DNA of 64,000 bases from Eledone cirrhosa (Eukaryota), in assembly GCA_964016885.1 (NCBI GenBank), contig OZ024740.1, forward strand, positions 67,828,001 to 67,892,000, given 5' to 3'. Shown piece after piece: positions 3,003-62,440 of the stretch (within the stretch, counting starts at the first letter, position 1; every line of letters starts with the position of its first letter). The position numbers and the translations under genes are program-made. The notes under the pieces were generated by a model, which saw only the letters and a program-made list of their open reading frames with translations, was not told the DNA's origin and ran no database searches.

Positions 3003-3224
3003 GATATATTTCTTTATTTACCATAAAGGCATAAAAAGAAGGGACAAATACAAAGGGGGAGTTTACATACAATCGAGTAAAAAGTGTATGAAATGAAAAT
3101 AATCGAAAACAACCTCAAAAGGGAGGGGACGTGATGGGGGTTGCACACACCCCCGAAAAAGGGGTGCAATCCTTTGCCCGGGGAGCACATGGAGAAGGTG
3201 CTCCCCTCTCCTTCACTTTTTTAC

Positions 3225-6200
3225 CTACAGGATGGTATACAGAGAAGGCCCATTTACACGAGCCATTCTCGCCACTATCACCCACCTTTCATAAAACTGC
3301 CTGTGGCCAAGCACCTCTCTGTCCATTCTTATCCTTCTTCCGAAGTGATATCGGAAGAAGTAGACCAGACTATGGCCAGAGAGGAAGTTGCCTGACGTCA
3401 GACCTTTCAATCGTGTCCACCAAACAACCTCTTTCAACATGGCTATTACGCACAGAAAAACCGCCTTTGCTTCCTTTGTGAAGAGGGGAGGCGGTTTGAT
3501 TGTCATCACGGACTCGGCGGTCAATTGAATCGGCGCCACCCGCGACAGCAGTCGTTCGGCGTAGCCCCACAGATCAGTCACGCCCGGACATTGCACTAAT
3601 GCGTGCGCAACGGTTTCTTCGTGACGCACGCATCTAGGGCAAATCTTTTTCGAGGGATCCCTGCCCGGGCGCCCGTGTCTGTAGAGCCTCTCTCGAACGG
3701 GTAGAGCCCCCCGGTAGCACTGCCAGGCTAGTGACTTCTGGAAGTTGTCCATTGGTCCCGGGCCGAAAGTCCTACCGAACAGGCTGGCCAGTTCGTCCTC
3801 TTCCATGTCCAGCGACTCTCCAAGGGTGTCATCGCCCCTGCTAGGCACCAGCCTTCTATAGAATGATGAGGTGGATTCTCCACCGATGGCCTGGCCCGTT
3901 TGCCAGAGAGCCCTGAGCGCCTGAGCACACTCAGTGTGCCAATCTCCCAGTTTTCCGGATCTTTGCTTGACCCAGGACTGCAGCTCGGTGAGCGAGACGA
4001 GTCTCGGAAAGGCTCGTTTCACGAACGGAGCCCACACCGGTTGACCAGTGAGGAATACCTGTAGGTGCCGTAGCCTTAATGCGTGGCGACGCATCATCAA
4101 CCACGGCATCCCCAGCCCTCCTTTCGAAGGTTTTTGGCAGCAGATGGATCTTCTCACCATAGGAGGGCGCTTCTTCCAAAGAAATTGGAAGAGCATGCGT
4201 TCCATGGTGGTGAGGGTTTGCTTAGGACAAGGCACGACAGTCAGGCGGTAGTAAGTGACGGACGCTATGTAAATGTTCGCCACCTCCGCCCGGCCTTTTA
4301 GGGACAGCTTGCACTTGGCCCATTTCTGGGTTAGTGCAAACACCTTGTTCGTAACCTCGTCCCAGTTCTTTTCCACCTGGAGGTCCGGTCCAAACCAGAC
4401 CCCAAGCAACTTTACCGGGCCCTCCATCCAGTGTCCGACGACACCGTTGGGAGGCAACGGTCTTCCCCTCCACGTTCCGAGTTGCAGCCCGATGGATTTT
4501 TCCCGGTCCAGTTTCGCTCCTGACAACCTTTCATAATCCTCCAGTAAGGTACCGATCGCCTCGATCTCCGAGTTGGTCGATACCATTACTTGTACGTCAT
4601 CGGCGTAGGCCGACACCGCTTTGCTCAATCCTGGTTCCAGGGGGATACCCTGCAGCAACTCTAACTTCCTCAGTAAAGGCTTGAGAGTCAATACGTACAG
4701 AAGGGAGGAGAGAGGGCACCCCTGTCGAATGAATCGTGTGATATCGAACGGCTTCGAAAGGTAGCCGTTCACCTTGATCCTAGAACAGATGTGGTTGCTA
4801 TGTAAGGCAGTGATCCAGCCTCTGAAAACAGGACCGAACCCAGCCGCCGCTGGGCACCGCATCCAGGTAACCATGGTCGACCCTATCGAAGGCCTTAGAC
4901 TGATCCAAGTTGATCAGGGCCCCACCGAAGCCGGGTTTGTTGCCAACCTTCTCTATGATGTATCGCATGAGGTGGAGGTTATCGTGAATGGACCTGGATG
5001 TGATAGCACATGTCTGCGCATCTCCCACCAGGCTACCCACGACAAGCGCCAACCTCTTTGCTAACACCTTGGCCAAAATCTTTAACTCTGTGTTTAGCAG
5101 GGTTATGGGCCGAACATTATTTATACTATCCCTCTTGTTCTCGTCCTTCCTCACCAGCGAGACTACGCCCTTGGCTACAGAACAAGGAATTCTCCCGTTC
5201 TGCTGCCAATTGCAGTATACCGCTTCGAGGAGTTCGGAGAAGAAGACCGGCATTGCTAAATAAAGTTCGTAAGGTATACCATCGAGACCTGGAGATTTGC
5301 GTCTGCTGCATTGGCTCAGCACATTCCCGATCTCATCAGCCGAGATTGGTCCCTCGCAGGACTCTGCCTCTTCGCTCGAGAGACGCGGCAGGCCGTCAGG
5401 TATGGACCGAAATCCACGTCCCCGCCCGGACCCTCGCCTCCCCTGAATAATCGGGCAAAGTGCCTTTGAAAGGCGTCGCACATCTGCTTAGGCTCCCGGA
5501 TCACCCGTCCATCCTCGTCTTGCAACGACCGGAGGGTGGATCGATTTCCACTCTTAGCTTCTGTCACGCGGGCCCAGCCAACGGCTTTGGCCCCCTCATT
5601 ACCTAGAGCACGTATTTTACTTCGAATGACGCAGCCTTCGTGCTTTGCATCGAACAACTGGTTCAAGGCCGTCCTCGATGCCAGCACTCTGGCCACATCT
5701 TCGCTCTTGATTGCCTCTTCTAATTTACCTGTTAATACTTTCTCGTTTCTATTCCTATCGGCAGCTAACATCTTGCTATAACTTATTGATTCTCTTCTAA
5801 TCTCTCTTTTGAGAGATGCCCACCATCGGTTGTTGACGATTGCACCCGTCAACCTCTCCTTAACTAATCTGCTAATCCGGTCTCTGTAACCCTCTTTTGC
5901 CGGTAAAGACAAATTAAGTTTCCAGTAACCGGGACCCTGTCTATGTGTTCTCTCGAGATTGACTACGCAGGTCACTAATTTGTGATCCGTATATCCAACC
6001 GTGCGCATTTCTGGACAGCTTAATATGTCCCTATCCTTATTTCTAACTAAGAATCTATCTAAGTACGATCTAGATTGACCACTGTGGTTCGTTCAAGTCC
6101 AGGTAGGCACAGTTGGATATCTATCGACCAAGTTAAAACGGTCGAGTAACCCCTTGAGGCTGTTACACCCCCTCTATTAGGACATGCTCCCTGCATAGTC

Positions 6201-6651
6201 CCAACCTGCATCTAGGATGTCATTCCAATCCCCCCGCTAGAAGCAGGGAACGCGACGTTCCCAGAAAAGTCTCCAAACGCTGGAAGAAGTCCGGCCGTTC
6301 AGCTCCGAAAGGGGAGTAGACGGCGACCAGTCTCAAGGCCGCACCTTCACTACTGCCAACGTCTAGTACCAACAAACGACCCTCCGGGTCCGAGTGAACA
6401 ACCTGTACGGCAAGACCCAGGTGTTTTTGCAGCAGTACGACAACCCCACCCCCACCTCCAGGTTGACAGAGAGATGCATGCACCTCAAAGTCATCGAAGG
6501 TAGGGGCCAGCTTCCGCACGACGCTGATCCGAGTCTCACAGATAACCATTACATTTATAACACATGACCTGAGGTCATTTAGAAGCTTTACTTGCTTCCA
6601 AGTTGAGCCCAGGTCACGTGCATTCAAACATCCTACTCTTAACACATCCAT
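3225..6651 (-). pseudogene. LINE ORF2 (APE endonuclease-RT-zinc finger), split by several frameshifts
   Basis: Fragments 6220-6651 (CLNAR, ICETR, GRLL..VAVYSP), 5316-6008 (TDHKLV, PGYWKLN), 4798-5481 (KSPGLDG, RPITLLNTELKILAKVLA), 3225-4874 (YADD, GGLGMP, CPRC..ETVAHALVQC). Confidence 0.92.
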
Positions 6652-6684
6652 GTGGGCGGCAGAGCCAAAGGAGAGTGTAGAGAC

Positions 6685-8424
6685 CTACCTTTCTGCTTCC
6701 CGGGGTTCGGGTCGCACGACTTCCATGGGGTCGGGGATGTTGGGTGAACGGGTGTCTTGTGGTGGTGTGGGGTCGTCAGTGTGTGGTGGGGTTAGGGTGT
6801 TTGGAGTTGTGTTGGGGAGGGGAACGGGGGGGGGGAAGCTTTTTAGTAGGACGCGGTTTATGGGTTTGACAGAGGGCGGTCCTACGTCCTCCTTAAAATC
6901 CTTTTTTAGTTTTTGGTAGAGGATCATTGGGATCTTTATTAATTTTAAATGTTGGTAGTTTTCTGAAGAAACAAAGTTTACACCTTCGGTTTGTACCGAA
7001 GGATTATTGTTTATGAGTTCATTTAATTTATTATTGTTTCTGTTGATGTAAGAATAGTGTAATGTCTTTTTTTCGGATGGTGTGTGTGTTTCGAAGAGGA
7101 GAGGGGCAGGTTTGGTTTTGTTTGTTGCTGGAGGGGTGTTTTGTGTTTTGTTGGATTGTGTTGACATTTGGGTGGGGGTTGTTTGGCCTTGTGTGTTTTG
7201 CACATGTTTTCTTTTTTTCTTTTTAATCTGTCTGAAGGACTCCATTTCTTCCTCCGAATTCGTTGGGTTATCTTCAGTGTTGGAGGGAAGAGGCATGTTT
7301 GCTGGTAATGTTTCCGTGTTGGTTTTCTTTGTGGGGGAGATGGATGTCACTATGTTAGACTGTGTTGTGTGTTGTAGCTGCGGTGGTTGTGTTGTTTTAT
7401 TGAGTGAGGGTTTGGGTGCGCCTGTATTTTGTTTTGGGGTAATGTGTTCTGACTGTTTGTGTTGTGGTGGTGGTGTAGTTTTACTGAGGGACGGGTTGGG
7501 TGGGACTGAGTTTTGTTGTTTGTTTATCTGTTGTGGTGGTGGTGGTGGAGCTGGTGTTGGTAGCAGGGTTTTCTTTTTGTTGAGTTGGGGACAAGCCGCC
7601 TTCAGGTGCCCTCTGCCTGCACAGATATGACAGGACGGTCTTCTCCCCTCCACGCTAATGTTTATATACCCGTGGCCCTCTAATAGGATTCTGTCGGGTA
7701 TTTTGGCGATGCGTTCAGGCTTCATTTGCACTACAAGCTCTATACCTGTTCCACTGAACGCATTGCCTGTGGTTTTCCCAATGGAAATCACGTTGTCATT
7801 CGCTGGATCGATGAAGCCAGCTATGAGCCAGCAGTAGTCCACATCTGGCATCATTGCATCCAGCCATATGCGTTGAGTTCTTTTACCCATATAAGATGGA
7901 TAAAAGGTAAAATTTTCGAACGAATCGGTGAAAAAAGCACATTTTTTTGCCGCCGATTCGTTCTTCATAATAATCGCTAGGCTTCCATACAGTCTGTCTT
8001 TTCTTATGAAAGTGGTTTCATTAAGTACTTCTGTGAGTACTGTTTTAAATTTTGTTTGAGTTGGCTGTTCAGGTTTTTTAGAAGTGTTGTTGATGGTGCG
8101 GAAAACGACCGTTCGACTTTCAATGTCTTTGGTGAGTTCTTGAGGCATTTTTACCGATAAAATACCATTCTCTCCTTCAGTTATATATTGTTTGGCGTCT
8201 GCAATTCTTTGTGTCATATCTGAAATATTTTCAGGTATATATGTCAAATATTTCTTTGTTGTTTGTGCAAATGAAATCTTATTGGTGTTGACTTTGTCGT
8301 CTGCTTTGCTTTCTGTTATGATGTTGTTTTCAAATGTTATTTTTGTGTTTGTTGTGTCTTTGTTTGTGGTATTAACATTGTCATGCAATTTTTCAAATTT
8401 TTTTTTTTCCTTGTTGGAATCCAT
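6685..8424 (-). CDS. LINE ORF1 (gag-like nucleic-acid-binding protein), 579 aa, uninterrupted
   Basis: Zinc knuckle CHICAGRGHLKAAC, Pro/Thr-rich linker, basic KKKKRK; homologous to ORF1 fragments of copy 2 (FPTYMGRR, QMRPERVEKIPDRIVLE, CHKCGKTTHLKAFCP). Confidence 0.88.
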   Translation of the reverse strand: MDSNKEKKKFEKLHDNVNTTNKDTTNTKITFENNIITESKADDKVNTNKISFAQTTKKYLTYIPENISDMTQRIADAKQYITEGENGILSVKMPQELTKDIESRTVVFRTINNTSKKPEQPTQTKFKTVLTEVLNETTFIRKDRLYGSLAIIMKNESAAKKCAFFTDSFENFTFYPSYMGKRTQRIWLDAMMPDVDYCWLIAGFIDPANDNVISIGKTTGNAFSGTGIELVVQMKPERIAKIPDRILLEGHGYINISVEGRRPSCHICAGRGHLKAACPQLNKKKTLLPTPAPPPPPQQINKQQNSVPPNPSLSKTTPPPQHKQSEHITPKQNTGAPKPSLNKTTQPPQLQHTTQSNIVTSISPTKKTNTETLPANMPLPSNTEDNPTNSEEEMESFRQIKKKKRKHVQNTQGQTTPTQMSTQSNKTQNTPPATNKTKPAPLLFETHTPSEKKTLHYSYINRNNNKLNELINNNPSVQTEGVNFVSSENYQHLKLIKIPMILYQKLKKDFKEDVGPPSVKPINRVLLKSFPPPVPLPNTTPNTLTPPHTDDPTPPQDTRSPNIPDPMEVVRPEPREAER

Positions 8425-9446
8425 GTCCAGATTTGTGTTTTCGTCATTTTTCTCCGCAGATTCGTCTGTTTTTATTTTATGTTTTCCTTCCTTCTCTATG
8501 ACGTTAGTTGGGAAGGAAGGGGGGGGGGACTAAAGCGTGCGAGCTTACAACTCTTACCGCTGTCCCCCACCACTATTTTCGTTAGCTTCGTTTAACATTT
8601 CTGTCAGACGATTGAAATTTTTTTTATGCCACAAAATTAAAAAAAACAGGTTTTTCACCCCTAGGAGGGGTAAAGATGAGCTGACCCACCGCCTGACAGT
8701 TCAGACGGGGTGTCAAGCTACACAATAGTATCAAAATTAAAATTGAACTTACAAAATTTCCGCAATAAATTTGAACAAAACTTCTGCGCGAAGTGAATTA
8801 CATCTACGCTGTAGAACAGACGACAGATAGATTTTTTATATATATATATAGATATATATATATATATATAGATATATATATATATATAAGGTATTTATTT
8901 TAGATACAGCAAGGCATAAACAAATGTCATCAATTATTAAGCCGTGTAGCCCTGAGCAGTCACACAAATATAAACACAGACACACACAAAACACAGACAC
9001 ACACAAACACACACACACACATACACATATGTGATACCGAGTTAAATCAGAGGTTACAACAGTATAAAAGTGTGCTCAATACATTAAGATAATGTAAATA
9101 TCATTATGTAATATGGAAACAGCTTCCACAGGATTAGAACTGTATAATTCGTATAAAAGCATTAGGAATGCCACGTGACATAGTGATTGATTGATACGTA
9201 TAGGTTACTTAGTGCGATGGTGGCGGCGGGAGCTGTGTGGATGGGTGTATTGACATGCATATACTCATACACACACACATGCATATGCTCATGATACTCA
9301 TACACACAGGCTCATAAAATAGCTCTTCTATATATTTATATTTAAACGCATACACGATTATACGTGGGAACACTTGTGTGTTGTTTGCATATGCGTGAGT
9401 GTATATATATATATTAATTTATACACACACACACACACAGACACAT

Positions 9447-14946: not shown

Positions 14947-14989
14947 ATATTGCTGATGAGATGTAATAACATCGAAACTAGTCCAATAT
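14947..14989 (+). ncRNA. Minimal type I hammerhead ribozyme, variant A
   Basis: atattg CTGATGA gatgt-aata-acatc GAAA CTAG TC^ caatat; stem I atattg/caatat; palindromic ACTAGT stem III. Confidence 0.85.
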
Positions 14990-15527: not shown

Positions 15528-15572
15528 AATATTGAACTAGTTTCGTTGTTGTTACAACTCATCAGCAATATT
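15528..15572 (-). ncRNA. Minimal type I hammerhead ribozyme, variant B
   Basis: Minus strand: aatattg CTGATGA gttgt-aaca-acaac GAAA CTAG TT^ caatatt. Confidence 0.8.
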
Positions 15573-16143: not shown

Positions 16144-16188
16144 AATATTGCTGATGAGTTGTAACAACAACGAAACTAGTTCAATATT
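16144..16188 (+). ncRNA. Minimal type I hammerhead ribozyme, variant B
   Basis: aatattg CTGATGA gttgt-aaca-acaac GAAA CTAG TT^ caatatt. Confidence 0.82.
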
Positions 16189-16610
16189 CCTTGTCTGGCC
16201 TTCTGGAGAATAGAGGGAAGGTGTTCCCCCGAAAACCAGTATGACTCTAAAAACCGGTTTGTCTGTGTGTTTACATACAGAATAGCTGGGTTGCTCACAG
16301 TAAAGCAACCAGTGAAAGACTTGTTACACCTACATATGTATACGTGTGTGTATTCATATACACACTAGTATTTCAGTATGCATATGTAGATGTACATTTT
16401 TAACTTAATTGTTTAAGCGTCAGTCATACAAAAGTGAGTTACAAACGAAACGAAATTTAATTTCGTTTCGTTATTTGTTTTTATCGTCTCCGCTGAACCG
16501 GTGCGTACTCACACTCTATGCAAATTAGTCTGCCCACTACTAATTTTCATAGAAAAAGCATATAATGATATGTGCATTTACAATTCTCCAGAAGAGCCGG
16601 TAGATAGGTA

Positions 16611-16655
16611 AATATTGCTGATGAGTTGTAACAACAACGAAACTAGTTCAATATT
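16611..16655 (+). ncRNA. Minimal type I hammerhead ribozyme, variant B
   Basis: Same motif one 467-bp unit downstream. Confidence 0.82.
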
Positions 16656-16920
16656 CCTTGTCTGGCCTTCTGGAGAATAGAGGGAAGGTGTTCCCCCGAA
16701 AACCAGTATGACTCTAAAAACCGGTTTGTCTGTGTGTTTACATACAGAATAGCTGGGTTGCTCACAGTAAAGCAACCAGTGAAAGACTCGTTACACCTAC
16801 ATATGTATACGTGTGTGTATTCATATACACACTAGTATTTCAGTATGCATATGTAGATGTACATTTTTAACTTAATTTTTTATATATATATATACATTCA
16901 TATACATACAGACATATATG

Positions 16921-25144: not shown

Positions 25145-25407
25145 TGTAGTGACTGAGATGGTCGCTTAGCAACTAGCAGTTGCCTCCCCTTAACAACTCT
25201 TCAGAGAGCGGAGGCAATATACATCCGGTCACAGACGCTGGTTCACTCACTCTCTTTGGACCGCGGACATGAACAGACGTGAAAGGATTCGCTCCTCAAA
25301 ATATTGACGTTGTAGGAAATTTATTAAATGATCGCATTTAATAAAATGATCGTTAGATTTGATTGTTCATTTATTTATTCAACAAAGAGAAACATTCTTT
25401 TCCTTTA
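25145..25407 (+). repeat. 5' LTR
   Basis: TGTAGTGACTGAG...TTCCTTTA; about 5 substitutions versus the 3' LTR by eye. Confidence 0.95.
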
Positions 25408-25408
25408 T

Positions 25409-25426
25409 TGGTGACCCCGACGTGAT
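25409..25426 (+). promoter_or_regulatory. Primer-binding site complementary to tRNA-Trp 3' end
   Basis: TGGTGACCCCGACGTGAT, 1 nt after the LTR. Confidence 0.9.
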
Positions 25427-25874
25427 TCAAACACGCGGCCTTCTGACTCACGCATACAGACGAACACGAAAATACAACACAAAAGAAAGAGTTTTTTCGA
25501 CGACTAACAAAAGATTTCTGGATATAGAATTTTGCTTTCAACCCTCTGTTAAAATTACAAATGGAGACCCAAAAATGTTGTTTTCCCGCGTTCAGCTTGT
25601 CTTCTTCAATCCCAGCCATCTGATTGGCTACATCGTGCCACATGACGGCTTCTTCATCACGGACACATTTTTAAATCAGCCATCTTGGCTTTTCTTACCA
25701 TACAATTTTCATGGAAAATGATTTATTTTATTATTCAAATTTTCTTTAGAATATTTTTTTAAAGAAAAAAAATTAGCAGTATTTCAAAACGGCTACCACC
25801 AAGTACCAGCCATCAGCAGCAACACCTGGCTAACTATTAACCAACACCAAAAATTCATAAAATACGTGGGCACC

Positions 25875-26660
25875 ATGAGTCAACATCATTTGCTGTCCTT
25901 CGCAGGCGACATCAAGTTATGGTTTGCGCAGCTGGAATGTTTCTTTGAATTAACCAAGACGAAAGAACAGCATAAGCTGAAGGTCCTGATCAATGGCCTA
26001 CCTGTTTCCTTGGCATTTTCGGTGAAGGACGTTGTCACGGATTTGGACGCCGCCGATACCTACAGCTCATTAAAAAACGAAATTCTTCGGAGAAATACCA
26101 AGTCGGTAGAGAGTCGTTTTCAGGAGTTGTTGGACGATGCTCAAATGGGTGACAGGAAGCCGAGCTCCTATTTGCGACATTTGCGGGAGTTGAGCGACTC
26201 CCAGGGGATTGACACCCCCTTCATAAAGCAGCTCCTTTTCTCACGTTTACCGCCAAGTGCGCAAAGGATTTTGGTTAATAGTTTGGAGAGGGAGTCCTTA
26301 GAGCAACTTGCCGCGTCCGCGGATAGAATACTTGAGGTGGACTCGAACAGCAATCGGCATAATCCTTATGTGGCTTCAGCTTGTGTCCCCCCACGCAATT
26401 CTTCTGTGGCCGACAGCACACTGTTGGAGTTGATTGAAGCTCTCACCAAAAATGTAGAAGATTTGACTGTACAACACAGAGAGCCTTCTCAACGTTTGAG
26501 GTATCGTTCGCCGCCGTCCTCTATTCATCGCCAGCACTACAACGCAGACAACAATAATTCTTCGTTTTGTTGGTATCATGCTAACTTCGGCAGTAGGGCA
26601 CAACGTTGTCGCACGCCCTGTAATTACAAGAGATCGGGAAACGCAAAGCAGAGCCACTAG
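25875..26660 (+). CDS. gag: Gypsy Gag
   Basis: First ATG at 25875; LWFAQLE, MGDRKPSSYLRHLR, CWYHANFGSRAQRCRTPC knuckle variant. Confidence 0.88.
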   Translation: MSQHHLLSFAGDIKLWFAQLECFFELTKTKEQHKLKVLINGLPVSLAFSVKDVVTDLDAADTYSSLKNEILRRNTKSVESRFQELLDDAQMGDRKPSSYLRHLRELSDSQGIDTPFIKQLLFSRLPPSAQRILVNSLERESLEQLAASADRILEVDSNSNRHNPYVASACVPPRNSSVADSTLLELIEALTKNVEDLTVQHREPSQRLRYRSPPSSIHRQHYNADNNNSSFCWYHANFGSRAQRCRTPCNYKRSGNAKQSH

Positions 26661-26679
26661 GGGCGGCTAGTGAACTCTG
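26636..26679 (+). promoter_or_regulatory. Programmed -1 ribosomal frameshift signal (gag-pol)
   Basis: G_GGA_AAC slippery heptamer in gag phase, 6-nt spacer, then hairpin CAGAG..CACTAG-gggcgg-CTAGTG..CTCTG; the -1 frame is open into the protease N-terminus. Confidence 0.8.
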
Positions 26680-29600
26680 GGAAAACCGACCGAACCGCCA
26701 TCTTTTCGTATACGACCTGTGGTCAAACAAATTTTTCCTTGTCTGGCGCGTCGCCGAGTATTTGGCCAGTCAGTTATCTCCAAAAACCCTCAGCTGAATC
26801 AAATATAAATCTAGGAGCAGTCAACCACACGGCCATTCGAACGTACGGGCAAATTTCGCTTCCTCTTCGGTTAAAAAATGTGCGTCATGATTTGAAGTGG
26901 AAGTTTACTATCGCCGACTTGCCATACGCCATTTTGGGAGCGGATTTTCTCCACCATTTTTCCTTGTTGGTGGACATTCGCAGACAACGCCTTTTTGATG
27001 CTGAAACAGGCCTTTCTTTCGAGGGTTCAGAGCCGGACGTCGCCACTGTCAGTCCTTCCTTTTTCTTGGCTGAAGTGGGCAACCAGTATCAAAGCCTGTT
27101 ACATTCATTCCTTCAGTTGACGCAGGGAAAGTTACGAATTACTAGCCCGGATCATGCGATTGAACACTTCATATCCACTACAGGTCCACCTGTTTTCTCA
27201 CGTCCTCGAAGATTATCTACAGAGAAGTTGAAAGCTGCACGTCTTGAATTCGACCACATGCTGAAATTAGGAATAATTCGGTGTTCCACAAGTCCTTGGG
27301 CATCGCCTCTACATATGGTACTTAAATCTTCTGGTGATTGGAGACCGACGGGTGACTACCGACGCTTAAACGCGATTACTGTGCCTGACCGTTATCCAAT
27401 CCCGCATTTGCAGGATTTTGCATCGTCATTGCAGGGTTGCAGAATCTTTTCTAAGCTTGATTTGATCCGCGCTTATAATCAAATTCCGGTTAACAAGGAG
27501 GATATCCCAAAGACTGCTATTGCCACTCCTTTCGGATCATTCGAGTTCCTCACTATGCCTTTCGGCCTTAGCAATGCTGCAAGTACCTTCCAACGATTTA
27601 TGGATGATGTTACTCGGGGCCTGGATTTTGTGTACACGTATATCGATGACGTGTTGATTGCTAGTTCTTCCCCTCAGCAGCATTCAAAGCATCTGGATCT
27701 CGTATTTCGTCGTTTACAGAGATATAAGGTTCGTATTAATGCTTCCAAGTGTGTTTTCGGCTCGACTTCACTAACATTTTTAGGCCATCTGATTGACGCC
27801 GATGGTATTCGACCTCTTCCTGAGAAGGTTAAGGCAGTATCGGATTTGCCTCCGCCAAGTTCACTGCGACAATTACGTCAATTCTTAGGCCTTGTAAATT
27901 TTTATAGGTGATTCGTACTTGGTTGTTCCAAATTGCTGTTCTCGTTGACATAAATTTTTAAGGGTTGCCGGCGTAAGAATATGGACATTTCCTTAAATAA
28001 AACGCAGCTTGAAGATTTTAAAAAAGTGAAAAAGGCGTTAGCGAACGCGTCTTTGCTCACCCACCCAGTACCCAACGCCGAGCTATCGCTCTGTGTTGAT
28101 GCTTCGGATAGCGCCGTGGGCGCAGTCTTACAGAAGAAGTGTGATGGGGTACAGCAACCACTCGAGTTCTTTTCGAGGAAGTTAAAGCCTGGCGAAACTC
28201 GCTATAGCACCTTTGGAAGGGAGCTATTAGCAATTTATTTATCAGTGAAACGTTTTGCTCATGTACTTGAAGGAAGAATATTCACCATTTTCACTGATCA
28301 TAAACCTTTGACGTTTGCTCTTCGAACTAAAGCAGACAAATACTCGCCCAGAGAAATGAAACATCTGGACTTCCTCTCACAGTTCACGAACGACATTCAA
28401 CATATTCCGGGTTCTTTGAATACAGCGGCCGATGCGCTGTCTCTCCTGCCGATCGCATCGATTTCGTCTTCCGAGGAGATAGATTTACATCGAATGGCAG
28501 CTGCCCAACCCACTCTCGAATCGTTGGATGTTACATCGCCAGAGTTTGTACATTGCAACTTGAAATACATTCCGATCTCAACTGCTGACGGACAAATACT
28601 GTGTGATGTTTCGTTGGACTCACCACGACCTCTAGTCCCAGTGGAACATCGACGAACTGTGTTTCTTGCTTTACATGGCATTTCTCACCCAGGAGTATCA
28701 GCCTCAGTAAAACTCATAACAGCCAGATTTTTCTGGCCTGATATGAGACGTGACATTGCTGCTTGGTGTCGTTCCTGTGTCGCTTGCCAACAAGCGAAAG
28801 TTCATAGACATGTTAAGGCTCCTCTCGGAACCTTCACCTGCCCGGATGCAAGATTTCGTCACATTCATGTGGATATCGTCGGCCCGTGACCGGTTAGTCG
28901 TGGTTTTTCGTATTTTTTGACGATTGTTGACCGTTTGTCGCGTTGGCCTGAAGCCGTCCCTATAACAGATATCACCGCTGAAACCACAGCCCGTACTCTC
29001 GTATCTTCATGGATCGCTCGTTTTGGTGTACCAACCATCATAACAACGGATCGTGGTCGTCAATTTGAGTCTAACCTCTTCCGAGAATTAACCCAAATCC
29101 TGGGGGCTACTTGAATAAGAACCATGGCTTACCACCTAGCCTCAAACGGAATGGTGGAAAGATTCCACTGGAAACTCAAAGCCTCCTTAAGGGCTTCCAT
29201 GGACTCTTCACGTTGGAGCGAGTACCTACCTATTGTGTTGTTGGGTATTCGGTCGACGGTAAAGGTGGACCTTGGGTTCTCCTCTGCCGAATTAGTTTAT
29301 GGTACTCCTCTGGCGTTACCGGGGCAAATGCTGGCCCCTTTTGACCTGACTTCGCAGGACCCCGCTTCCTACGTGTCCCGGCTTCGCTCTTATTTCAAGG
29401 ATCTACCACCGATGGGCACTAGGAAGCAGACTGTAAAAACTGCCGTCCCAAGGGATATTGCCTTGAGGACACATGTGTTCGTTAGAGACGACGCCGTGAG
29501 ACCCCCTCTTCAACGGCCGTACTCTGGACCCTATCGTGTGCTTGCTCGCACAGACAAACATTTCACACTGGACATTCGGGGTTCCAAGGAAACGGTTTCC

Positions 29601-29783
29601 GTTAATCGTCTCAAACGAGCAAACCTGGACAATGACACAATGACACTTGAAACTCAAATGCCCCCTTCTTTTTCTTTGCCACATAGGCCTATTTCTTCCC
29701 CCCCCCCCCACCATCAACACACAGAACTACGACCCGTTCTGAGCGACGGGTGCATTGGCCCCGTAAGCTATGCAGTAATATAA
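26642..29783 (+). pseudogene. pol: Gypsy Pol (PR-RT-RNase H-IN) with stops and frameshifts
   Basis: [77 protein letters not shown]; in-frame stops at about 27911, 28889 and 29114. Confidence 0.93.
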
Positions 29784-33833: not shown

Positions 33834-33869
33834 GAAAAGTGTAATTTTCTACACAAAACGAAGGTTATA

Positions 33870-34390
33870 GAGAGAATTGAGGTTGGTAATGGCACATGGA
33901 ATATATAAGAGACAGAATACTTTTTTGTGAAAAAACATATAATTTTATAAGGTAAGGAAATAATAAAGGGTATAAAAAATGACCGGTTTCGATGGGTCTG
34001 CAAAAGCCATCTTTTCAAATGTTGATTAATATTAAGAAAAATTAATAATACGAAGAGTTAAAATTTGAGATTTGAAAATTCAAGTATAAAATTCATTGTG
34101 GGATTTCATAGTAGTTTTCATCTAGGTAGCAACAACAGGTTGACTGCTGTATCCCTTTCTGGTAGTGAATGAGAAGTTATTTGGGGTGTGGGTTATTTTA
34201 TAAAGGTCAGATTTAGCAATGGCCAACTGGCCAGCTGCTGGTCAGTGAGGGGGTGGAAGCAATATACATACACATATCTTCAGTGGTGGGTAGGAGAGTG
34301 GAGCGTGATAGAAAGGGATTTAGTGCACTTACACCTATATATACACACATACCTTCATCCACACATACATACATATACATATACATACAC

Positions 34391-34433
<43 letters not shown>

Positions 34434-34500
34434 CACACATACATACACACACACATACATATACATACACACATACACACACACACACCTATATACACAT

Positions 34501-34545
<45 letters not shown>

Positions 34546-35627
34546 TATATATACATACACATACATCCAGATACACACATACATACACACACACACACCC
34601 ACACATATATATATACACACACATATATATATATATACACATACGCATACATCCAGATACACACATACATACACACACACAATACATACATCCACATGCA
34701 CACACATACACACACACACATATACACATACATACACCCACACACAGAGAAATGGCCTCCAAATATATATATATATACATACATACACATATATTTTTTC
34801 CATAATATAAGAAGTTGGGACAGTGAAATTAAAATACAAGTCATTCTGATCACATTGAGTTCTTCATGTAGATTGGGCCCCGCAACCGACAGTGGTGAAT
34901 TCTGTGTGCGCATATATATATAGATATATGTGTGTGCACGTGCAGGGTTTAACATGGATGTGTTGGTCACACAAAGGCATGGTCTGTCAACGAATAAACC
35001 TGATTCTACAGAATTGGTCTCTGGTCTTTAATAGTAGTGATTCCGTGCGTATGTGTGTTTATATTTTATGACAATTCTATTGGGGTGATAAACCGTTTAG
35101 TTTTGGTTTAAATTTGTTAAGGAATAGATTTTCTTTGTTTATTCTTTGTTGCTGTGTGAACGAATCTGAGCACTTGTAGAAGGGGAAGATTTTAAAGTTG
35201 GGTAGTGTCATTCCTGCGCAGTTCGCAGTATGGCTGCTCAAGGGGATTTTTCTTGTGTTAGCGTCCCGGATTTGTTGGCGGAAATCTGACCTTTATAAAA
35301 TAACCCACACCCCAAATAACTTCTCATTCACTACCAGAAAGGGACACAGCAGTCAACCTGTTGTTGCTACCTAGATGAAAACTAATATGAAATCCCACAA
35401 TGAATTTTATACTTGAATTTTCAAATCTCAAATTATAACTCTTCGTATTATTAATTTTTCTTAATATTAATCAACATTTGAAAAGATGGCTTTTGCAGAC
35501 CCATCGAAACCGGTCATTTTTTATACCCTTTATTATTTCCTTACCTTATAAAATTATATGTTTTTTCACAAAAAAGTATTCTGTCTCTTATATATTCCAT
35601 GTGCCATTACCAACCTCAATTTTCTCT
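33870..35627 (-). mobile_element. 5'-truncated Penelope-like element with inverted pseudo-LTR copy
   Basis: Arms about 33870-34214 and 35282-35627 are inverted; GIY-YIG C-terminal remnant lies between them; arms carry a degenerate hammerhead (gatgg..ccatc GAAACCGGTC). Confidence 0.78.
35077..35280 (-). pseudogene. C-terminus of Penelope GIY-YIG endonuclease
   Basis: My translation: RQQIRDANTRKIPLSSHTANCAGMTLPNFKIFPFYKCSDSFTQQQRINKENLFLNKFKPKLNGLSPQ*; not in the ORF track. Confidence 0.72.
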
Positions 35628-42304: not shown

Positions 42305-42937
42305 TATGTATGTATCTATCTATCGGATGGACACGTGTTAAACTTTCTCGGTAAGTTTTGTTTAAATTTCTTTAGAAATTCGTCACTGTGAACTTTTATT
42401 TTTATATCAATTTGAAGAGGGACTGAGAAGTCAAATTTTGATCTGGTCAGTCTCCTAAAACATCGTGCCCCTCAGGGCAAAAACATACAAAATATTTTCG
42501 AAAATATTTTTACAAAACACTTCAATTTTCAAAATTGGCCGAAGCAAAGGACCTACTTCTTTGTCAATACAAGTAGATGGGAAGAGAAAGCCATGCCTAC
42601 TTGACCAGCAAGTAGTAGCAGACATGGACAAAGGAATGCCAACATTATCGCCTCAACATTTAGATTAGGGACAAGCTTCAGCTGATGTAAGCAACTGAAC
42701 ACGCCTGACGTCACAAACGTCACATGTATCCACACACAGAAGAAAGAATGTGTAGCAAATACTAACACCACCACAAGCAATAAAAACAACAACACAATAA
42801 ATGAGAACAACAACAACACAACAAAAGGTATCAGCGGCAACACAACGAATGAGACCATCATCACCACCAACAACAACAATAACAACATTTCATTTGCCGC
42901 AACCGTTGCTAAGCAACAGGATTTTAAATATTACCCT

Positions 42938-44421
42938 ATGTACATTTCCCCAAAGTCCAAATATTTGGAAGAAGCTTCCAACTATGTGACGCCTGAGAGA
43001 GACACCCCACACATACACATACCCCCGCAAGTAAGAGAGATGACAAAGAAAAAGAAGCTAAGTTATAGAACAGTTGACATCATTACCAAAAAATCCATAA
43101 CGCTCCCAACAAACACTATTGAAGCTGCACTAAAAGATATCAAGCCAGACGTGGCATACCTCCAAAGAGGTAAACAGTATGGAAGTGTTTCAGTGCTCTT
43201 TAAGAGCGAAACTCTGGCTCAAAAACACTCAGTTTACCTAATAATAACGGATCAACACATATTCTTCCCCACATACATGGGAAGGAGATCATACAAAATA
43301 AAAATAACCAAGATCCCAGCAGAGGTAAGCATATGGTGAATCCTATGCTGCATCCCGAAGAAGGATGAGGACACCCTCCTATCTGTAGACAGGACAGACC
43401 GGAATAACTGTTTTGGAACCTGCATCAAGGTTCTGGTACAAATGAGGCCAGAGAGAGTTGAGAAAATCCCGGACAGGATCGTCCTTGAGGAAGATGTCAT
43501 CTCCATTTTAGTGGAGGGAAAAAGACCTCAATGCCATAAGTGCGGGAAAACCACACACTTAAAGGCCTTTTGCCCTCTCTTAAACAAACCTAGGACAAAG
43601 AAGGTGTTATTACAAACACCAAAACCCCAACATCAACACCCCAAACCAAACATAACACAAAAACCTGCAACATCCACTCCCACACCACTACAGACCTGAG
43701 ACAACCACACACACAATCCCACTGAAAAAACATCCATTGCCTCCTCCCTCCCTGTCAAATACTTCCACAAACACCTGCACAATCACACCACCACACAACA
43801 TACCCCTCCCATCTACCCCTGATTCAGAAGTCTCAGACACGAGAACCTCTACATCTACATGTGAGAATGAAGAGGCACCCAAAAATTCAAAAAACAAAAA
43901 AAGGGACAAACAAAAAACACAAACACAAAAACATCTACAGAAAACACGCACACACCCAACCCCACCATAAACACGACGCCACAAACGACAAACACACCAA
44001 CTACACAATCACCACCAATACAACCAAACAATTCACCCACAAAACAAACACCCACACTACCACAATCACAAACCCCAACCACTAACAGAAAACTACAAAC
44101 AGTAACAGCACACATAAAAAAACAAAACATCTTACACATACATAAAAACAAAAAAGAATTGTTAGACACTGTCCGAAAGGACCCTACTATCCAAAGGGAA
44201 GGGAAAACCTTCCCCACCAACGACCCACCGCCAAACCTCAAACTGATCAGGGTAACAACCCTACAACATGTAACATTGAAAGGGACATTCCCACATGGTG
44301 TGGGCCCCCCTTGCCAAAAAACCCTTAACCGTGTGCTGCTAAAAGGATTCCCCCCTCGCCAAACACCCCCAATCTTGACATGGAGATCGAACAAGCCGAC
44401 CTCCAGGAAACGAAAAGGTAA
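42938..44421 (+). pseudogene. LINE ORF1 remnant
   Basis: FPTYMGRR, CHKCGKTTHLKAFCP, NRVLLKGFPP, terminal MEIEQADLQETKR*; the true start is probably further upstream. Confidence 0.8.
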
Positions 44422-44464
44422 GTGTTCCTGCCTTTTCTCTCCCTTATCTCTCTTCTTCACCAAT

Positions 44465-47400
44465 ATGGCGACTATACAGGTTGGATGTTCGAATGTACGT
44501 GGCTCGGGCATGCCCTGGAAACATGGCCAGCTTTTAAATGATCTCAATTCACATTGCATAGATGTGATAGCCATCACCGAGTCCAGGATTCATGACAGGC
44601 AGCAGCTAACCCCCATGTTCGATGACTTTGAGATCTACGTATCTCTCTGTCAGCCAGGAGGTGGAGGGGGAGTTGGTGTTCTGTTTCGAAAAAACTTGGA
44701 TCTCAAAGTACAGACGATTCACTTGGAACGGAGGGCAGCTTGGTAGTCCTGAAAGTAAATGGTAGTGAAGGTGGACCTTTCAGATTCGTGGCCGTATATG
44801 CTCCGACTGGGACATCGCGACCAGAGTTCTTCAAGCGTCTGGAGCCATTCCTGGGAACGTCTCGCTCCTTAGTATTAGCGGGGGACTGAAATGGCATCTT
44901 AGATGCACGTTGGGACTATGTAGGAGCTTGTGATAAAAGAGGGGGGGGGGGGGGTAATAGCCTGAAAAATTTAATCAGCCTATTCCAACTGGCTGATAGA
45001 TATCGACTAGACTTCCCAAGTGTACCACTGTGGACGTGGAGCACCCGCACTGGGTCTTCTAGATCGTATTTAGATAGATTTTTAATTAGACAGAAAGATA
45101 AGGAAACATTAAGCAGTCCACAAATGCACATGGTTGCCTATTCAGACCTCAAATTAGTCACCTGCGTAGTGAACCTTGATAGAACACATAGACAGGGACC
45201 CGGATACTGGAAGCTAAACATGTCGCTTCCGGCACGTAAGGCCTACAGTAAACGGATTAGCACCTTAGTTAAGTGCCAGTTGACGGGGGCGATCGTCAAC
45301 AACAGGTGGTGAAGCTCTCTCAAGAGACAATTAGAATGGAATCGATAGTATTTCGCAAGAAAGTAGCTTTAGAAAAAACAAAGCCGAAAAGGAACTGGTA
45401 GCTAAAGTAGAAGAGACCCTTAGGAATGGCAGTACAGCTGAAGTGCTAGCGGCGAGAACGGCACTAGAACGGCACTAGACAATTTCTTCAACGTGAAACA
45501 CAAAGGTTGTATTGTCAGAAGTAGAACACGTGCTCTAAGAAACGAGGGTACCAAAGCTGTTAGCTGGGCCCGAGTGGCAGATGCGAAAAGTGACAACAAA
45601 TCCACAATTCGGTCCTTGCAAGACAAAGATGGATGCATTCTACTTGAATCCAAGCAGATGTGCACGGTCTTCCAGCAGCATTTTGCACAACTGTTCGGGC
45701 AAAGCGGTACGTCAAGGGAAGTGATGGACTTCAGCTCCTACCTCGACGGCGTACCACGATTCTCGAACAGGGATTCGGTGAGCGAAAGGCCGATCACAGC
45801 GGGCGAAATAGAAGATGCCCTTGGTCGCTGTGGGAAAAGTAAATCACCCGGTTTAGATGAGTGTTACATAGGCATACCAGACTTGTTCTCTGGCGTCCTC
45901 GAAGCGGTCCACTGCAACTAGTAACAGAACGGGAGGATTCCTGTTCTGTAGGCAGAGGCGTAGTAACGCTGATCAGGAAAGATGAGAACAAGGGGGATGA
46001 GATAAGCAATTTCAGGCCCATAACCCTGCTTAACACAGAGTTAAAGATTTTGGCCAAGGTGTTAGCAACGAGGCTGGCGCTTTTCATCTAGAATCTGGCA
46101 GGGGAAGCGCGGACGTGTGCAATCCCGACCAGGTCCATACACGACAACCTCCACCTCATGCGATACATCATACAGAGGGTAGGGTGTAAACCTGACTTCG
46201 GTGGGGATCTGATCAATTTAGATCAGTCTAAGGCATTTGATAGGGTCGACCATCAATACTTGAAAGCGGTTCTCAAGGCGGACGGCTTCGGTCCCGTCTT
46301 CAGAGGCCGGATCGCTGCCATGCACACCAGCATCTGCTCGGCAGTCAAGGTGAATGGCTACCTACTGGAGCCATTCCAAATAATGCGTTCCATCCGTCAG
46401 GGGTGCCTTCTCTTCTCCATTCTGTATGTACTGACTCTCGAGCCATTACTGCGGAAAGTGGAGCTGTTGCAGGGCATCCCGGTCGAACCAGGACTGCGGA
46501 AAGCAGCGTCGGTCTATGTCGACGACATAACCGCAATGGTGTCGATAACCTCGGACATCGGGGTAATCGGTAACCTATTACAGGAATACGAAACGTTGAC
46601 AAGAGCAAGACTAAACCCAAACAAGTCTGTCGGTTTGCAACTCAGCACATGGAGAGGCAAACCCATGTCTTCCGACAGTGTCGTTGGACGCTGGACGGAA
46701 GGACTGGTGAAATTGCTCGGGGTCTGGTTTGGTCCAGACATCCAGGTGGACCAGAACTGGAACGAGGTCACGGCGAAGGTGTTTGCACTTACCCACAAGT
46801 GGGCTGAGTGCAAACTCTCCTTCACAGGTCGAGCAGAGGTGGCGAAAACTTACATAGCGTCCGTCATCTACTACCGCTTGACAGTCGTGCCTTGTCCCCG
46901 TGAATACCTTACCAAAATGGAACCAAGTTCCTCTGGTAGAAACAGGCTCCATTGGTGAGGAGGTCCATCTGCTGTCAACACCCTTCTAACGGAGGGCTGG
47001 GCATGCCGTGACTGATGATGCGCAAACACGCACTGAGGCTACGCCATCTCCAGCTGTTCCTGAACGGTGAATCGGTGTGGCTGTCGTTTGTGAGACGAGC
47101 TCTTCCACAACTCGTCTCACTAACAGAGCTGCAGTCCTGGGTTAAGCGAAGACCGAAAATGGGCGCCTGGCACCTCGAGTGCGTTCAGGGGCTCACAGCC
47201 CTCTACCAAGCGGAAACGGAAATTAGTGGAGACATGACTTCGACATTCTATAGGGGATTAGTAGAAGATAAGTGCGACGACGTTCTAGGTGAAAATCTAG
47301 GCATCGAGGAAGACGAACTGACCAGTTTGTTTGGGAGGACTTTCCGTCCAGGGCTTATGGATAACTTCCAGAGCTGTCTGGCCTGGCAGTGCTACCAAAG

Positions 47401-47884
47401 AGCACTTCCAGTTCGAGACAAAATCTACAGGCACGGACACCCAGGCAGAGATCCTGCCAAAAGGACCTGTCCAATATGCGAGCAGGACATCGAAACCGTT
47501 CTTCACGCAATTGTTCAGTGCCCAGGGGTGACCATCCTGTGGAATTATGTCGAACAGCTACTGTCACGTGTAGGACGCATCCAGTTGTCAGCCGAGTCCA
47601 TCGAGAGGATCACCCCTCCGCCTTCATTTAAGAATGAAGCAGAGGCAATGTTCCTCAGTCTGGTGGCTATGGCGAAAGAGGTAATATGGTGGACGAGGTT
47701 AAAAGGACTGAGGGCAAGCACCTTTCTCTCCGGACAACAACTCAACCCCTTCTTTAAGTACCACTTCAGAAGGAAGGTGAGAGTGGAGAGAGAGATGCTG
47801 CACTCCAGTAAATTTGTTGAACGGTGGGTGAATGTGGCGAAAATGGCCCGGGTAAATGGGCCTTCTCTGTATATAAACCTATAG
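44465..47884 (+). pseudogene. LINE ORF2 remnant (APE-RT-ZnF)
   Basis: MATIQVGCSNVRG, PGYWKLN, FRPITLLNTELKILAKVLA, DQSKAFDRVDH, YVDD, CPICEQDIETVLHAIVQC, VNGPSLYINL*. Confidence 0.92.
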
Positions 47885-48119
47885 GTTGAAGAAGATAAAC
47901 AGAGGGAAGACGGGTTATCGAGGGTTGTTCTATCCACGGGATGTTAAACAACCCCACAGTAGCGTTACCCCCTCCACCTAATGGGGATTTCAATTGTTTT
48001 ATTTTTATATAGTTTATTGTTATTTATCATTGTTAAAGATTTTATGTAAAACCCCCGCCATCACGTCTTGTAACGTCCCAATGGTGTACCCGGCTGTGGC
48101 AAATAAAGAAAGATATCTT

Positions 48120-48259
<140 letters not shown>

Positions 48260-55333: not shown

Positions 55334-56185
55334 CGAGGTGGGTCAGAAAAATTCCAGGAATGATGTCACAAAAGATATATTTCAAACCCAAACTTCACAC
55401 TAAGAGTTTTCTCCTTCAAAATAATCTCCCTGGAGTCTAATGCACTTTTTCATCCTTTTCTGCCACGCTTGCATGCACTCCTGGGAGGATACGTCCCGGA
55501 TCCTCCGCAGTTCCGTCGTCACGGCCTTTTTTTATGTCGCCCACGTCTTCAAAACGGGTCCCCTTCGGGTCGTACTCAAAGAACCATGACTCATCATCGG
55601 TGATGACTGTCCCTAGCAAGTCTGGTTCAAGACGCTCGAGAATGCCCTGGTACACTTGCATACGTCGACCCTTCTTGTCATCGTTAAGCAGTTTTGGCAC
55701 CATCTTCGCGCAGACTTTCCGCATGTCCAAATGTTCAGTGAGAATCTTCCAAACGCTGTCCCGATTCATGCGCCGCTCATTTACCATCAGTCGAACATTC
55801 TGCCGACGGTCGCTACGCGCCATCTGCCTGACGTGCTCAACGTTGACGTCAGTCCTGGTTGTTGAGGGCCTTCCGCTCCTGGGGTCATCGTGTCCTTCTT
55901 TAAAGCTATTGCACCACTCAAAAACACGTGAGCGTGACTTCGTCTCATCTCCATACACTTGCTGCAGCAATCCCAGTGCTTCTGACGGAGTTTTTAAGTT
56001 TGTTCGTTACTCTGTTCTCATTGTATATAAAATTATGAAAAAGAAAGTGTGATCGCTGCAGAGAGCTGAGATTACAGTTACATACTCCAGGTAGATTACT
56101 TTGAAGGAGAAAACTCTTAGTGTGAAGTTTGGGTTTGAAATAAATCTTTTGTGACATCAGTCCAGAACTTTTCTGACCCACCTCC
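55334..56185 (-). mobile_element. Internally deleted Tc1/mariner DNA transposon
   Basis: TA TSD, about 105-bp inverted ends (CGAGGTGGGTCAGAAAA...TTTTCTGACCCACCTCC), transposase remnant. Confidence 0.92.
55437..55970 (-). pseudogene. Mariner transposase remnant
   Basis: VFEW..F..DDPRSGRP, KVCAKMVPKLL, VITDDESWFFEYDP joined directly to KGTRFEDV (most of the catalytic core deleted). Confidence 0.88.
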
Positions 56186-58800: not shown

Positions 58801-59754
58801 TCCTTTATAATATTAATAATAATAGATGTTTTCGTTTAGAGTGATAAATGTGCGGGTTTAATTCACACGTATTTTAAACGGCAATGAAGAATTTTTTTTT
58901 TTTTTACTTTAGTATAATTTTGCTACCTATAAAAACAAGTAATTAAGAAGTAGATCGATCGTTCTTTCTCTATGGAATTAAAGAAGTAGGAAATGAGAGG
59001 TGCGTTCGATAGAAGTTGAGAGAGAAAAGGTTATGCTAGAAATTGTAAATGAAAACTTTTACAAATTACGCTTAAAAAATTACGCACAAATGTCTGTGTG
59101 TATTTACACCCACATGTGCCGAATATAACTGTGTAAGTCGTGATCACATGTAAAGGTCTACCTCATATATATATATATATATATATATAGTTTTGCGAGG
59201 TTTTTTATATGAAATCGTGTGTCGAAACAGATATTGTTATATTTGGGGAGGGTCATATTTGCGTAATATTGCCAGAATTAATAACAGAACACACTCACTG
59301 TTTGGTTGGTTTTCGCTTCTCGCTGTCTTTTATATATATATATCTGCGATCTAACTTACTCGGTCCTCAATGTTGCCATTGACTGACCGGCGGTCAAAAA
59401 ATAATACAGATACAATATAGACAAACACATATATATATAGTTTACATAAATCTTTCGTTGCACATCTGCAACATCGTCAGTGGTGTTATATTCATTGTTC
59501 CTCCTGTTGTGTAGTATGTCTACGCCATTTTTTTTTTGTTCAGTCTGTCTATATATTTATTTATTTATTTGCTTGTTTGTTTATCTTATTTTATTTTGTC
59601 TTCTTTGCGCATGCGTTTGCGTGTGTGTATAGTGTTATGTGTGATGTGTGACTAGTGTGTATAGTGTTGTGTCTGCTGGGTGACTAGTGTGTGTTTATGT
59701 GCTTGTGTATGTATTTATTTATCTTATTTTATTTAATTTAATTTACTTATTTAT

Positions 59755-61905
59755 TTATACTTCTCTTAGGTCAGTGTTGTTTGTTTGGGTGTTGTTGTTG
59801 TTCCTCTCATTCTTTCTGTTTAGCTTTGGTCTTCTAATTTCTATTTCACTGGCCTCTCTGATTTGCCTATCTGCTGGGTCATTCCTATGTTTAGATATTA
59901 TTCTAATTTCTATGTTGTCTATGTTACCGTCATGATGTTGTCTAGCATGTTCGTATAGTACTGACCCGTTTTTTCGTCCTTTTAGTTCCCCCCAGTGTTG
60001 GTCTATCCTTTCACCTATGCTACGAGCTGTCTCACCTATGTATGTTGTTGTCGTGTTTCTGCAAGTACCCTCTGTACATCTTATGCTATAGACTACGTTT
60101 CTAGTTTTACAGTTTATCCGGGGGTTCACCTTACATATGATACATTTCCTATTGGTACAGTGGGTTTTCTTAAAAGGGTAGGTTTTGCTGATCAGGGATT
60201 TTATGGTGGTTCCTGGCTTTTCTACCACCTTTATTTTTAAGTGGGTCTTTCTCAGGGCCTTTCTACACTGGTTAGCTAATTTCCCTCCAGGGGTGGCGTC
60301 CACAAACATGACACTCTGATATCTCTGGTTGTCGTACCATGATATGGCCTTCCCTATCTTATGTCTAGCCCTATCTAAGCTATTCCATGATTTGCTCCTG
60401 TATAGTGGGCAAATTCCTTTCATGTCCAGTTCTATGAGGGTCTTATACTTTTCCATGGCTCCTTCGTATACTCTGACTCTGTCTCTTTGGTTGTAGCCAG
60501 AGAACTGCATGCGGTTGATGAAGTGTTGGATGTGTCCTTCCATTTCTGTTGGGTCGCACATGCTGGACACATTCTTCATCACTCGTACCAAATCTGCGAT
60601 CAGAATATTAAACTTAGCACTACTGGACATTGCTGAGTTTTTGAGTATCAGGTATTTGGAGGCCATGGGTTTAGCATAGTGTGAGTGGAGAATTTGGGCT
60701 CTCTCGTCTATAGTGTTAATCCAGAGTTCTGTGTCTAATACAGGTAGTCTATTGTTAGGGTGTTTGGAAGGGAAGTCTATAGTTACAGTTATACTCTGGT
60801 GTATGGAATTAGCTATCTGCTGGATGCTTTCCATCGTGCTACGTTCTAAATCAAACTTGTTAGTGCTCTCTAGTGGGGGTGTTCTTATAACTATATTGAT
60901 ATCGTCTACATAACGAGAGTACATGATGAGGTCTATGGAGCTTTCATTAAGGAGATCTTTAAGTCTCCTTTCCCACCATACCATGAAAAGGTTGGCAACA
61001 TCGCCAGCTATGCTGACGCCGATAGCTGCTCCCTCATTTTGGGTGTAGATTTTCTCATTGAACTTAAATATGTGGCCTTTAGGGTAGTTTTGATACTAGC
61101 CCCTATTGCATGTGCGACCATTTTTCTTACCTGATCAGTGTTTTGGGGGGTCCGTATAGCTTTGGTCCACCCAATCCACCTTCCTATGGGAGTCTTTTTA
61201 GCCATTGAGGTTATGGTGGGGGGTCTACCTCTTATAGGTCTACTAGGGCAGAAACATCTAAGGTCATGGCTGTCTAGGTAGTCAGTGTCGTAGGTAAGTC
61301 TAAGTAGGAGGCCCAGTTCGTCTGTGTCGACGTCGCAGAACTCCACCTCACTCTCAATGATCATCTCCACACATCTTTTCACAGCAAAATCAATGTTAAT
61401 GGATGGGTACAGTGACACCACATCCATGCTGCCTATTATGCAGTTGGATAGGCTCCTGTTTTTGTTGCACTCACTGATTCTGCTGAGGAGGTCCTCTGTA
61501 CTTTCACATACATCTGGGGACATCTTGATTATGGGGCGTATAACCATTGAGAGGAAGTAGGAGATCCTGTAGTTGCTAGCTATATTAGCTCCGCATACAG
61601 GTCTTGTTGGTGGTCCTATTGTCGGGTCGTCGACTGTCTTGTGGTCTTTGCGGAGCCCATACAAGGGTGGTATGCCATTGTTAGACGCCTGGAAGTTGTT
61701 GGCAGTGCGTCTGCTTGGCTTTAGGATGTCAGTCCACATCATCATGTGAGCGTTGAGGATTTTTTCTCTCCCATCGTGTGTTAGTTGTGCAACTTCGCTC
61801 GTGTTGGTGATGTGGGGTTGCATTGCCTCGATGTAGTTCGGCATGCTATCTATTGACATCCTACCAGACTTATCTGTGGGTAGACACACTACCTCACCAT
61901 CCCTA
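59755..61905 (-). pseudogene. Penelope RT-GIY-YIG ORF, 5'-truncated, one frameshift near 61080
   Basis: PTDKSG, LYGLRKDHK, TRPV, SMDVVSLYPSI, YTQNEGAAIG, RYVDD, LPVLDT, CTNRKCIIC, VVYSIRC..YIGETARSIGERIDQH. Confidence 0.92.
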
Positions 61906-62073
61906 GTCACACATCACACATAACACTATACACACACGCAAACGCATGCGCAAAGAAGACAAAATAAAATAAGATAAACAAACAAGCAAATAAATAAATA
62001 AATATATAGACAGACTGAACAAAAAAAAAATGGCGTAGACATACAACACAACAGGAGGAACAATGAATATAAC

Positions 62074-62114
62074 ACCACTGACGATGTTGCAGATGTGCAA
62101 CGAAAGATTTATGT
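62074..62114 (+). ncRNA. Candidate minimal hammerhead in the Penelope pLTR (mirror copy about 59445-59485 minus, element sense)
   Basis: CTGACGA t gttgca-gatg-tgcaac GAAA gatt TA; stem I is weak (2 bp). Confidence 0.5.
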
Positions 62115-62319
62115 AAACTATATATATATGTGTTTGTCTATATTGTATCTGTATTATTTTTTGACCGCCGGTCAGTCAATGGCAACATTGAGGACCGAGT
62201 AAGTTAGATCGCAGATATATATATATAAAAGACAGCGAGAAGCGAAAACCAACCAAACAGTGAGTGTGTTCTGTTATTAATTCTGGCAATATTACGCAAA
62301 TATGACCCTCCCCAAATAT

Positions 62320-62440
<121 letters not shown>

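Follow-up and report, generated by a model that had tools for sequence, protein, structure and literature searches.

Does a LINE of Eledone cirrhosa carry the borders of an intron on the stop codons of its two genes, such that the whole of its enzyme-coding frame might be removed from the RNA, or are these borders simply what stop codons and conserved protein ends look like? In the usual view, a LINE expresses its two proteins from a single unspliced RNA. The question arises from a single window, by which we mean the entire stretch of 64,000 nucleotides analysed here (assembly GCA_964016885.1, contig OZ024740.1, positions 67,828,001 to 67,892,000 of the forward strand). An earlier note on this DNA had pointed to a diverged second copy of an element in which a donor-like site at the end of ORF1 and an acceptor-like site at the end of ORF2 seemed to be independently conserved, and had proposed RNA-level constraint on both.

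Spliced RNAs have been described for several retroelements, here as given in the available parts of the respective papers. Ty1/copia elements produce a spliced gag-only RNA, through an intron of ~3 kb in Drosophila copia and as shGAG in Arabidopsis EVD (PMC5580714); human L1 splicing gives rise to SpIREs, with deletions inside the 5' UTR or between 5' UTR and ORF1 (PMC5860796); and TART has spliced antisense RNAs (PMC1636488). Tx1 non-LTR elements often target microsatellites (Kojima 2015, PMC4494074), and L1-Tx1 families have been recently active in Octopus vulgaris (PMC13282606), again according to the accessible sections.

Results

One LINE family in two copies

The window is microsatellite-rich DNA and holds one LINE family in two copies on opposite strands. 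Copy 1 (3009..8830, reverse strand, boundaries approximate) is the better preserved, with an ORF1 open for 614 codons, while copy 2 (42325..48111, forward strand, boundaries approximate) is decayed and has TA/TCTA microsatellite on both sides. Both copies lie inside such repeats (ends at 3009-3018, 8830, 42325 and 48102-48160) in a window that is itself very rich in them, and a target preference is possible. The 3' end of both is AATAAAGAAA, without a poly(A) tail (3009-3018; 48102-48160).

Each copy has two ORFs and a 3' UTR and no LTRs. ORF2 contains a reverse transcriptase (RT) domain (PF00078) in both copies and a zinc finger at its C-terminus (zf-RVT, PF13966); both ORF1s carry a CCHC knuckle (C-X2-C-X4-H-X4-C), and the Atlas neighbours of ORF1 are zf-CCHC/ZCCHC3-like (0.90-0.92). 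Against solved structures, the relative P0003 matched human L1 ORF2p best (E 3e-50), with R2 at 4e-24. Short fragments of the endonuclease-like N-terminal region of ORF2 had no match in Pfam or PDB; the region aligned at 30% with the N-terminus of the full-length homologue P0008, and from its motifs we presume a resemblance to an apurinic-type endonuclease. By its domain content the element is classed as an L1/Tx1-type LINE, with Tx1 as a tentative placement. Protein searches returned no relatives of ORF1 and, for the N-terminal part of ORF2, none among longer proteins; DNA scans for the family found nothing in viral contigs and prokaryote genomes, and metagenome scans with the N-terminus and the C-terminus of ORF2 found no family DNA.

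Between the copies, ORF2 is 71.7% identical in nucleotides and 65% in protein, with 0.51 identity at four-fold sites, and ORF1 is only ~50% identical; judged by these values, they are different, sister subfamilies. Copy 2 has acquired 12 stops (in three segments aligned to P0003) as well as frameshifts, and reads as a dead LINE copy. It consists of an ORF1 remnant (42686..44421, +, its start provisional) with the CCHC knuckle, stops and, near its end, a net deletion of 79 nt relative to copy 1; a pyrimidine-rich spacer (44422..44464, +; 36 of 43 nt, against 25 of 33 in copy 1); ORF2 (44465..47884, +), in which the endonuclease-like N-terminus, RT and zf-RVT are interrupted by stops and frameshifts; and a 3' UTR (47885..48111, +) with AATAAA at 48102. 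Across 43871-44746 (+) the 79-nt deletion brings the upstream ORF1 frame into phase with ORF2 through a stop-free spacer, a read-through that is probably a lesion particular to copy 2.

Other repeats share the window. At 59231-62327 (-), RT and GIY-YIG-like ORFs lie between perfect inverted repeats of 425 nt, in what appears to be a young Penelope-like element; gag-pol-like ORFs with RT, RNase H and integrase motifs, interrupted by stops, occupy 25350-29783 (+), which we take to be a Ty3/Gypsy-type LTR retrotransposon; and 55437-56006 (-) is presumably a mariner-like transposase remnant. Nested, near-perfect inverted repeats at 14138-16882 and 33869-35627 (arms of 236-484 nt, 97-99% complementary) are either fold-back structures or a feature of the assembly.

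A donor-like site on the ORF1 stop codon

Copy 2 contains the donor-like 9-mer AAG|GTAAGT at 44415..44423 (+), overlapping the ORF1 stop TAA at 44419-44421 and opening a putative intron at 44418, exactly as first described. Copy 1 has AAG|GTAGGT at 6683..6691 (-), also on the ORF1 stop, with a putative intron from 6688. Scored by simple nine-position match to the consensus MAG|GTRAGT, the two sites reach 9/9 and 8/9 respectively. No other of the 288 GT sites in copy 2 scores 9/9, and among 132 aligned GT-GT pairs this is the sole pair with at least 8/9 in both copies. Over the two elements, donor-like context occurs at 3 of 298 TAR triplets, two of which are the ORF1-stop site, against 1/296 elsewhere. 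The donor is a real signal, the best conserved in the 5.8-kb element, and it is the one striking fact of this locus.

The sequence leading into the donor is also conserved. The last 14 codons of ORF1 in copy 2 (MEIEQADLQETKR*, 44380..44421, +) are purine-rich and share 29 of 42 nt with copy 1, an identity of 69% where the remainder of ORF1 has about 52% (P about 0.02), and this end is more alike as DNA than as protein, the same 29/42 nt standing beside 4/13 shared residues. Nucleotide-level constraint at the end of ORF1 is mildly supported by these comparisons.

Two readings of the donor can be set out here. The one that we favour, at somewhat better than an even chance, is that copy 2 is an ordinary decayed LINE whose splice-like motifs are by-products of its stop codons, of the G after each stop and of protein conservation. 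Replication would then proceed from unspliced two-ORF RNA, and an arginine codon AGG, a TAR stop and the next G would by themselves yield AG|GTAR G, a G after the stop codon being a strong termination context; the last T and the choice of codon are the parts of the donor left over. The second reading, a serious proposal that we nevertheless hold to be unlikely, makes ORF2 a regulated spliceosomal intron: with its donor on the ORF1 stop and its acceptor on the ORF2 stop, splicing would give an ORF1-only mRNA with a normal 3' UTR, as in copia, the full RNA serving as copying template and source of ORF2p while the spliced mRNA would supply an excess of ORF1p. In its favour, the best aligned donor (1/132) stands at one border and a joint-best acceptor (top 3/51) at the other; the 42 nt before the donor are purine-rich and conserved as DNA; and the length, about 3.5 kb, is near that of the ~3-kb Drosophila copia intron given in the accessible part of PMC5580714.

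The acceptor-like end of ORF2

ORF2 of copy 2 closes with TAG (47882-47884) followed by G, an acceptor-like YAG|G at 47882..47885 (+) that was correctly placed by the earlier note. In copy 1 the same TAG and G are found at 3224..3227 (-), and the next codon in frame with ORF1 is TAA. Ranked by pyrimidine count (13-15 in 20), the site shares first place in a set of 51 aligned YAG pairs, and within the top three of the 51 it alone has G at +1 in both copies. A 22-mer upstream, encoding VNGPSLY (47852..47873, +; copy 1, 3257-3236, -), is identical in the two copies, which bears out a further observation made at the outset.

How exceptional this identity is depends on the rest of ORF2, where the 22-mer is the third identical run by length, after runs of 37 and 27 nt that are both in the RT domain, a region without a proposed splice site. 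Of 87 windows in which seven residues agree, 10 agree in every nucleotide as well, and 20000 shuffles of synonymous identity gave a mean of 1.09 runs of at least seven identical codons, with one or more such runs in 69%. That all of the terminal seven ORF2 codons should be identical has a chance of about 0.012-0.017 for a fixed place. For the final 24 codons the synonymous identity of 12/16 exceeds the background of 0.57 without reaching significance (P=0.11). Conservation at synonymous sites is therefore slightly above background locally but does not exceed other peaks of the element, which gives a mixed answer to the refuting condition set in the earlier note, and that it is no higher near the acceptor than at the RT-domain peaks counts against an intron border. 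The two longest runs (46014-46068 and 46131-46172; copy 1, 5112-4954) belong to the N-terminal part of RT, with 16 of 18 and 12 of 14 codons the same; RNA-level constraint or gene conversion is possible there, and stronger than at the end of ORF2.

The peptide offers a simpler source for the 22-mer. VNGPSLY is kept in four close relatives (64-69% identical), which have an RVNGPxLxxxL-like end in the same column, and among the homologue C-termini listed, 30 of 58 ends (out of 153 proteins) have L or F; a hydrophobic ORF2 end with pyrimidine-rich codons is general in the clade. If the motifs are by-products, the pyrimidine run would derive from this conserved hydrophobic peptide and the AG from the TAG stop. 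Because the 22-mer encodes a conserved peptide, longer identical runs exist in RT and the AG belongs to a stop codon, the case for constraint on the acceptor is weak. The proposal of RNA-level constraint on both sites consequently survives, in mild form, only for the donor and the 42 nt at the end of ORF1.

The predicted spliced product across the family

The putative intron measures 3467 nt in copy 2 (44418 to 47884) and 3464 nt in copy 1. Splicing of copy 1 is predicted to meet an immediate stop and to leave ORF1p unaltered, which suits an intron; in copy 2 it adds 31 codons, close to the extension of about 30 codons without a stop that had been read from the letters. The ending of ORF1p after the junction thus varies from one subfamily to the other, which speaks against an intron.

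Copy 2 reads GTTG after its TAG, for which a decayed TAG had been suggested. Contigs from four public runs, for none of which an RNA origin is recorded, were aligned on copy 1 at 82% likeness, and three loose contig ends of run X5 (24 of 1926 loose ends displayed) are other 3' ends of the family: one is of copy 1 type, one reads TAG|GTTG like copy 2, and one has Ile-Met-Arg-Leu and then TAG|GCTG. Both copies retain TAG|G, as do the loose-end contigs, including one contig that was not selected for it, and an immediate stop after the junction is absent from two of these three ends. Since TAG|G is retained and the stop behind it is not, decay of a TAG is an unlikely origin for the GTTG of copy 2, and the contig ends with TAG|GTTG and TAG|GCTG contradict that suggestion.

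Search for a spliced form

The joint expected from copy 1, 3224 to 6689 (ORF1 to 3' UTR), is missing from the best-supported 15 of 215 joints in the four contig sets, none recorded as RNA, and this weighs against ORF2 as an intron. Contigs 17 (X5) and 25 (X6) run through the copy 1 acceptor unspliced. These contig data, from assemblies that drop rare forms and runs of which none is recorded as RNA, are a weak test that lowers the likelihood of splicing. X5, to judge by its size, may be RNA. As DNA, ORF1 joined to the 3' UTR was found neither in the window nor among the displayed joints of X1, from which rare single copies could escape; this deep run of the same species argues against an abundant family of spliced DNA copies, although a spliced RNA would retain the 3' UTR. 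Both copies have their enzyme-coding region framed by a conserved donor and a conserved acceptor, as motifs only.

The donor might also function alone, binding U1 snRNP to guard against early polyadenylation or serving other acceptors, with the AG at the ORF2 end incidental. This would fit a donor that is a much stronger signal than the acceptor, and U1 protects the plant copia element EVD from premature termination (PMC5580714, available part). Downstream of the donor, however, neither copy has AATAAA or ATTAAA before the terminal signal, all internal ones being upstream of the donor, and this absence weakens the case for U1 protection; nor do the 15 displayed joints (of 215) on copy 1 include any further GT..AG joint on the element strand. 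We regard a function of the donor alone as improbable.

Less probable still is that conservation at these places reflects RNA signals of another kind, namely a termination/reinitiation element at the ORF1 stop and a hairpin at the end of ORF2 within a 3' region recognised by RT. A small 6-bp hairpin is predicted in both copies (47845..47862, + in copy 2), overlapping the start of the 22-mer and differing by one C-G to U-G change, and the purine-rich ORF1 end of copy 2 could pair with the pyrimidine spacer. Yet most of the stem is dictated by the peptide MARVNGP, and the folding is not significant, with z-scores of -1.5 and -2.2 at the ORF2 end and -1.9 and +0.6 at the ORF1 end, from two sequences only. 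For hairpins in the 3' UTR, folding did not surpass that of shuffled sequences (z -1.3 and +0.4).

Discussion

Our preference for by-products of stop codons and protein conservation rests mainly on these points: the 22-mer is only the third run by length, its peptide recurs in relatives, the stop after AG|G is absent from copy 2 and from two of the three other 3' ends, and the spliced joint is missing from the 15 joints displayed out of 215. Opposed to it is the position of the element's best donor exactly on the ORF1 stop, although ORF1 is only ~50% identical between the copies, together with the DNA conservation over 42 nt, the retention of TAG|G, the seven identical codons and the restoration of the ORF1 protein by the copy 1 junction.

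Compared with known systems, the element resembles the L1 superfamily and its Tx1 clade in having two ORFs, a CCHC knuckle in ORF1 and an ORF2 with RT and a C-terminal zinc finger; the position of its copies in microsatellites, within a window very rich in them, may be a further likeness to several Tx1 families (PMC4494074, in the sections available). It differs in the splice-like motifs on both stops, which go unmentioned for Tx1 in the accessible portions of PMC4494074 and PMC13282606; in the main text of the latter, on Octopus vulgaris, the string 'splic' has no match. Human L1 offers a LINE RNA whose donors and acceptors can be used and whose spliced forms are able to reinsert, but the SpIREs described do not lack the whole of ORF2, whereas loss of the entire ORF2 is proposed here (PMC5860796, in part). 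With Ty1/copia the proposed likeness is that splicing would provide an mRNA for the structural protein and unspliced RNA would serve replication; Ty1/copia elements, however, have LTRs, a single gag-pol frame and RNA evidence, while the present element has two separate ORFs, and its putative intron is known from motifs in DNA. HAL1 (half-L1) elements contain ORF1 only. ORF1 with a 3' UTR and no ORF2 is just how a reinserted spliced RNA would be expected to look; by contrast both copies in the window retain ORF2, and the ORF1-3' UTR form is missing from the window and from the displayed X1 joints.

In the literature consulted, mostly from outside subscription journals and partly as excerpts, we found no LINE with its entire ORF2 as an intron, and as far as that literature goes a spliced ORF1-only mRNA, if real, would be new for LINEs. 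Were ORF2 an intron, this would be a new mode of LINE expression that sets the ratio of ORF1p to ORF2p, a convergence with copia reached independently by non-LTR elements, and a short path to half-LINE (HAL1-like) parasites, suggesting an origin for ORF1-only elements. If instead the motifs are by-products, as we favour, copy 2 is simply a dead LINE of the ordinary kind, with the lesson that stop codons mimic splice sites.
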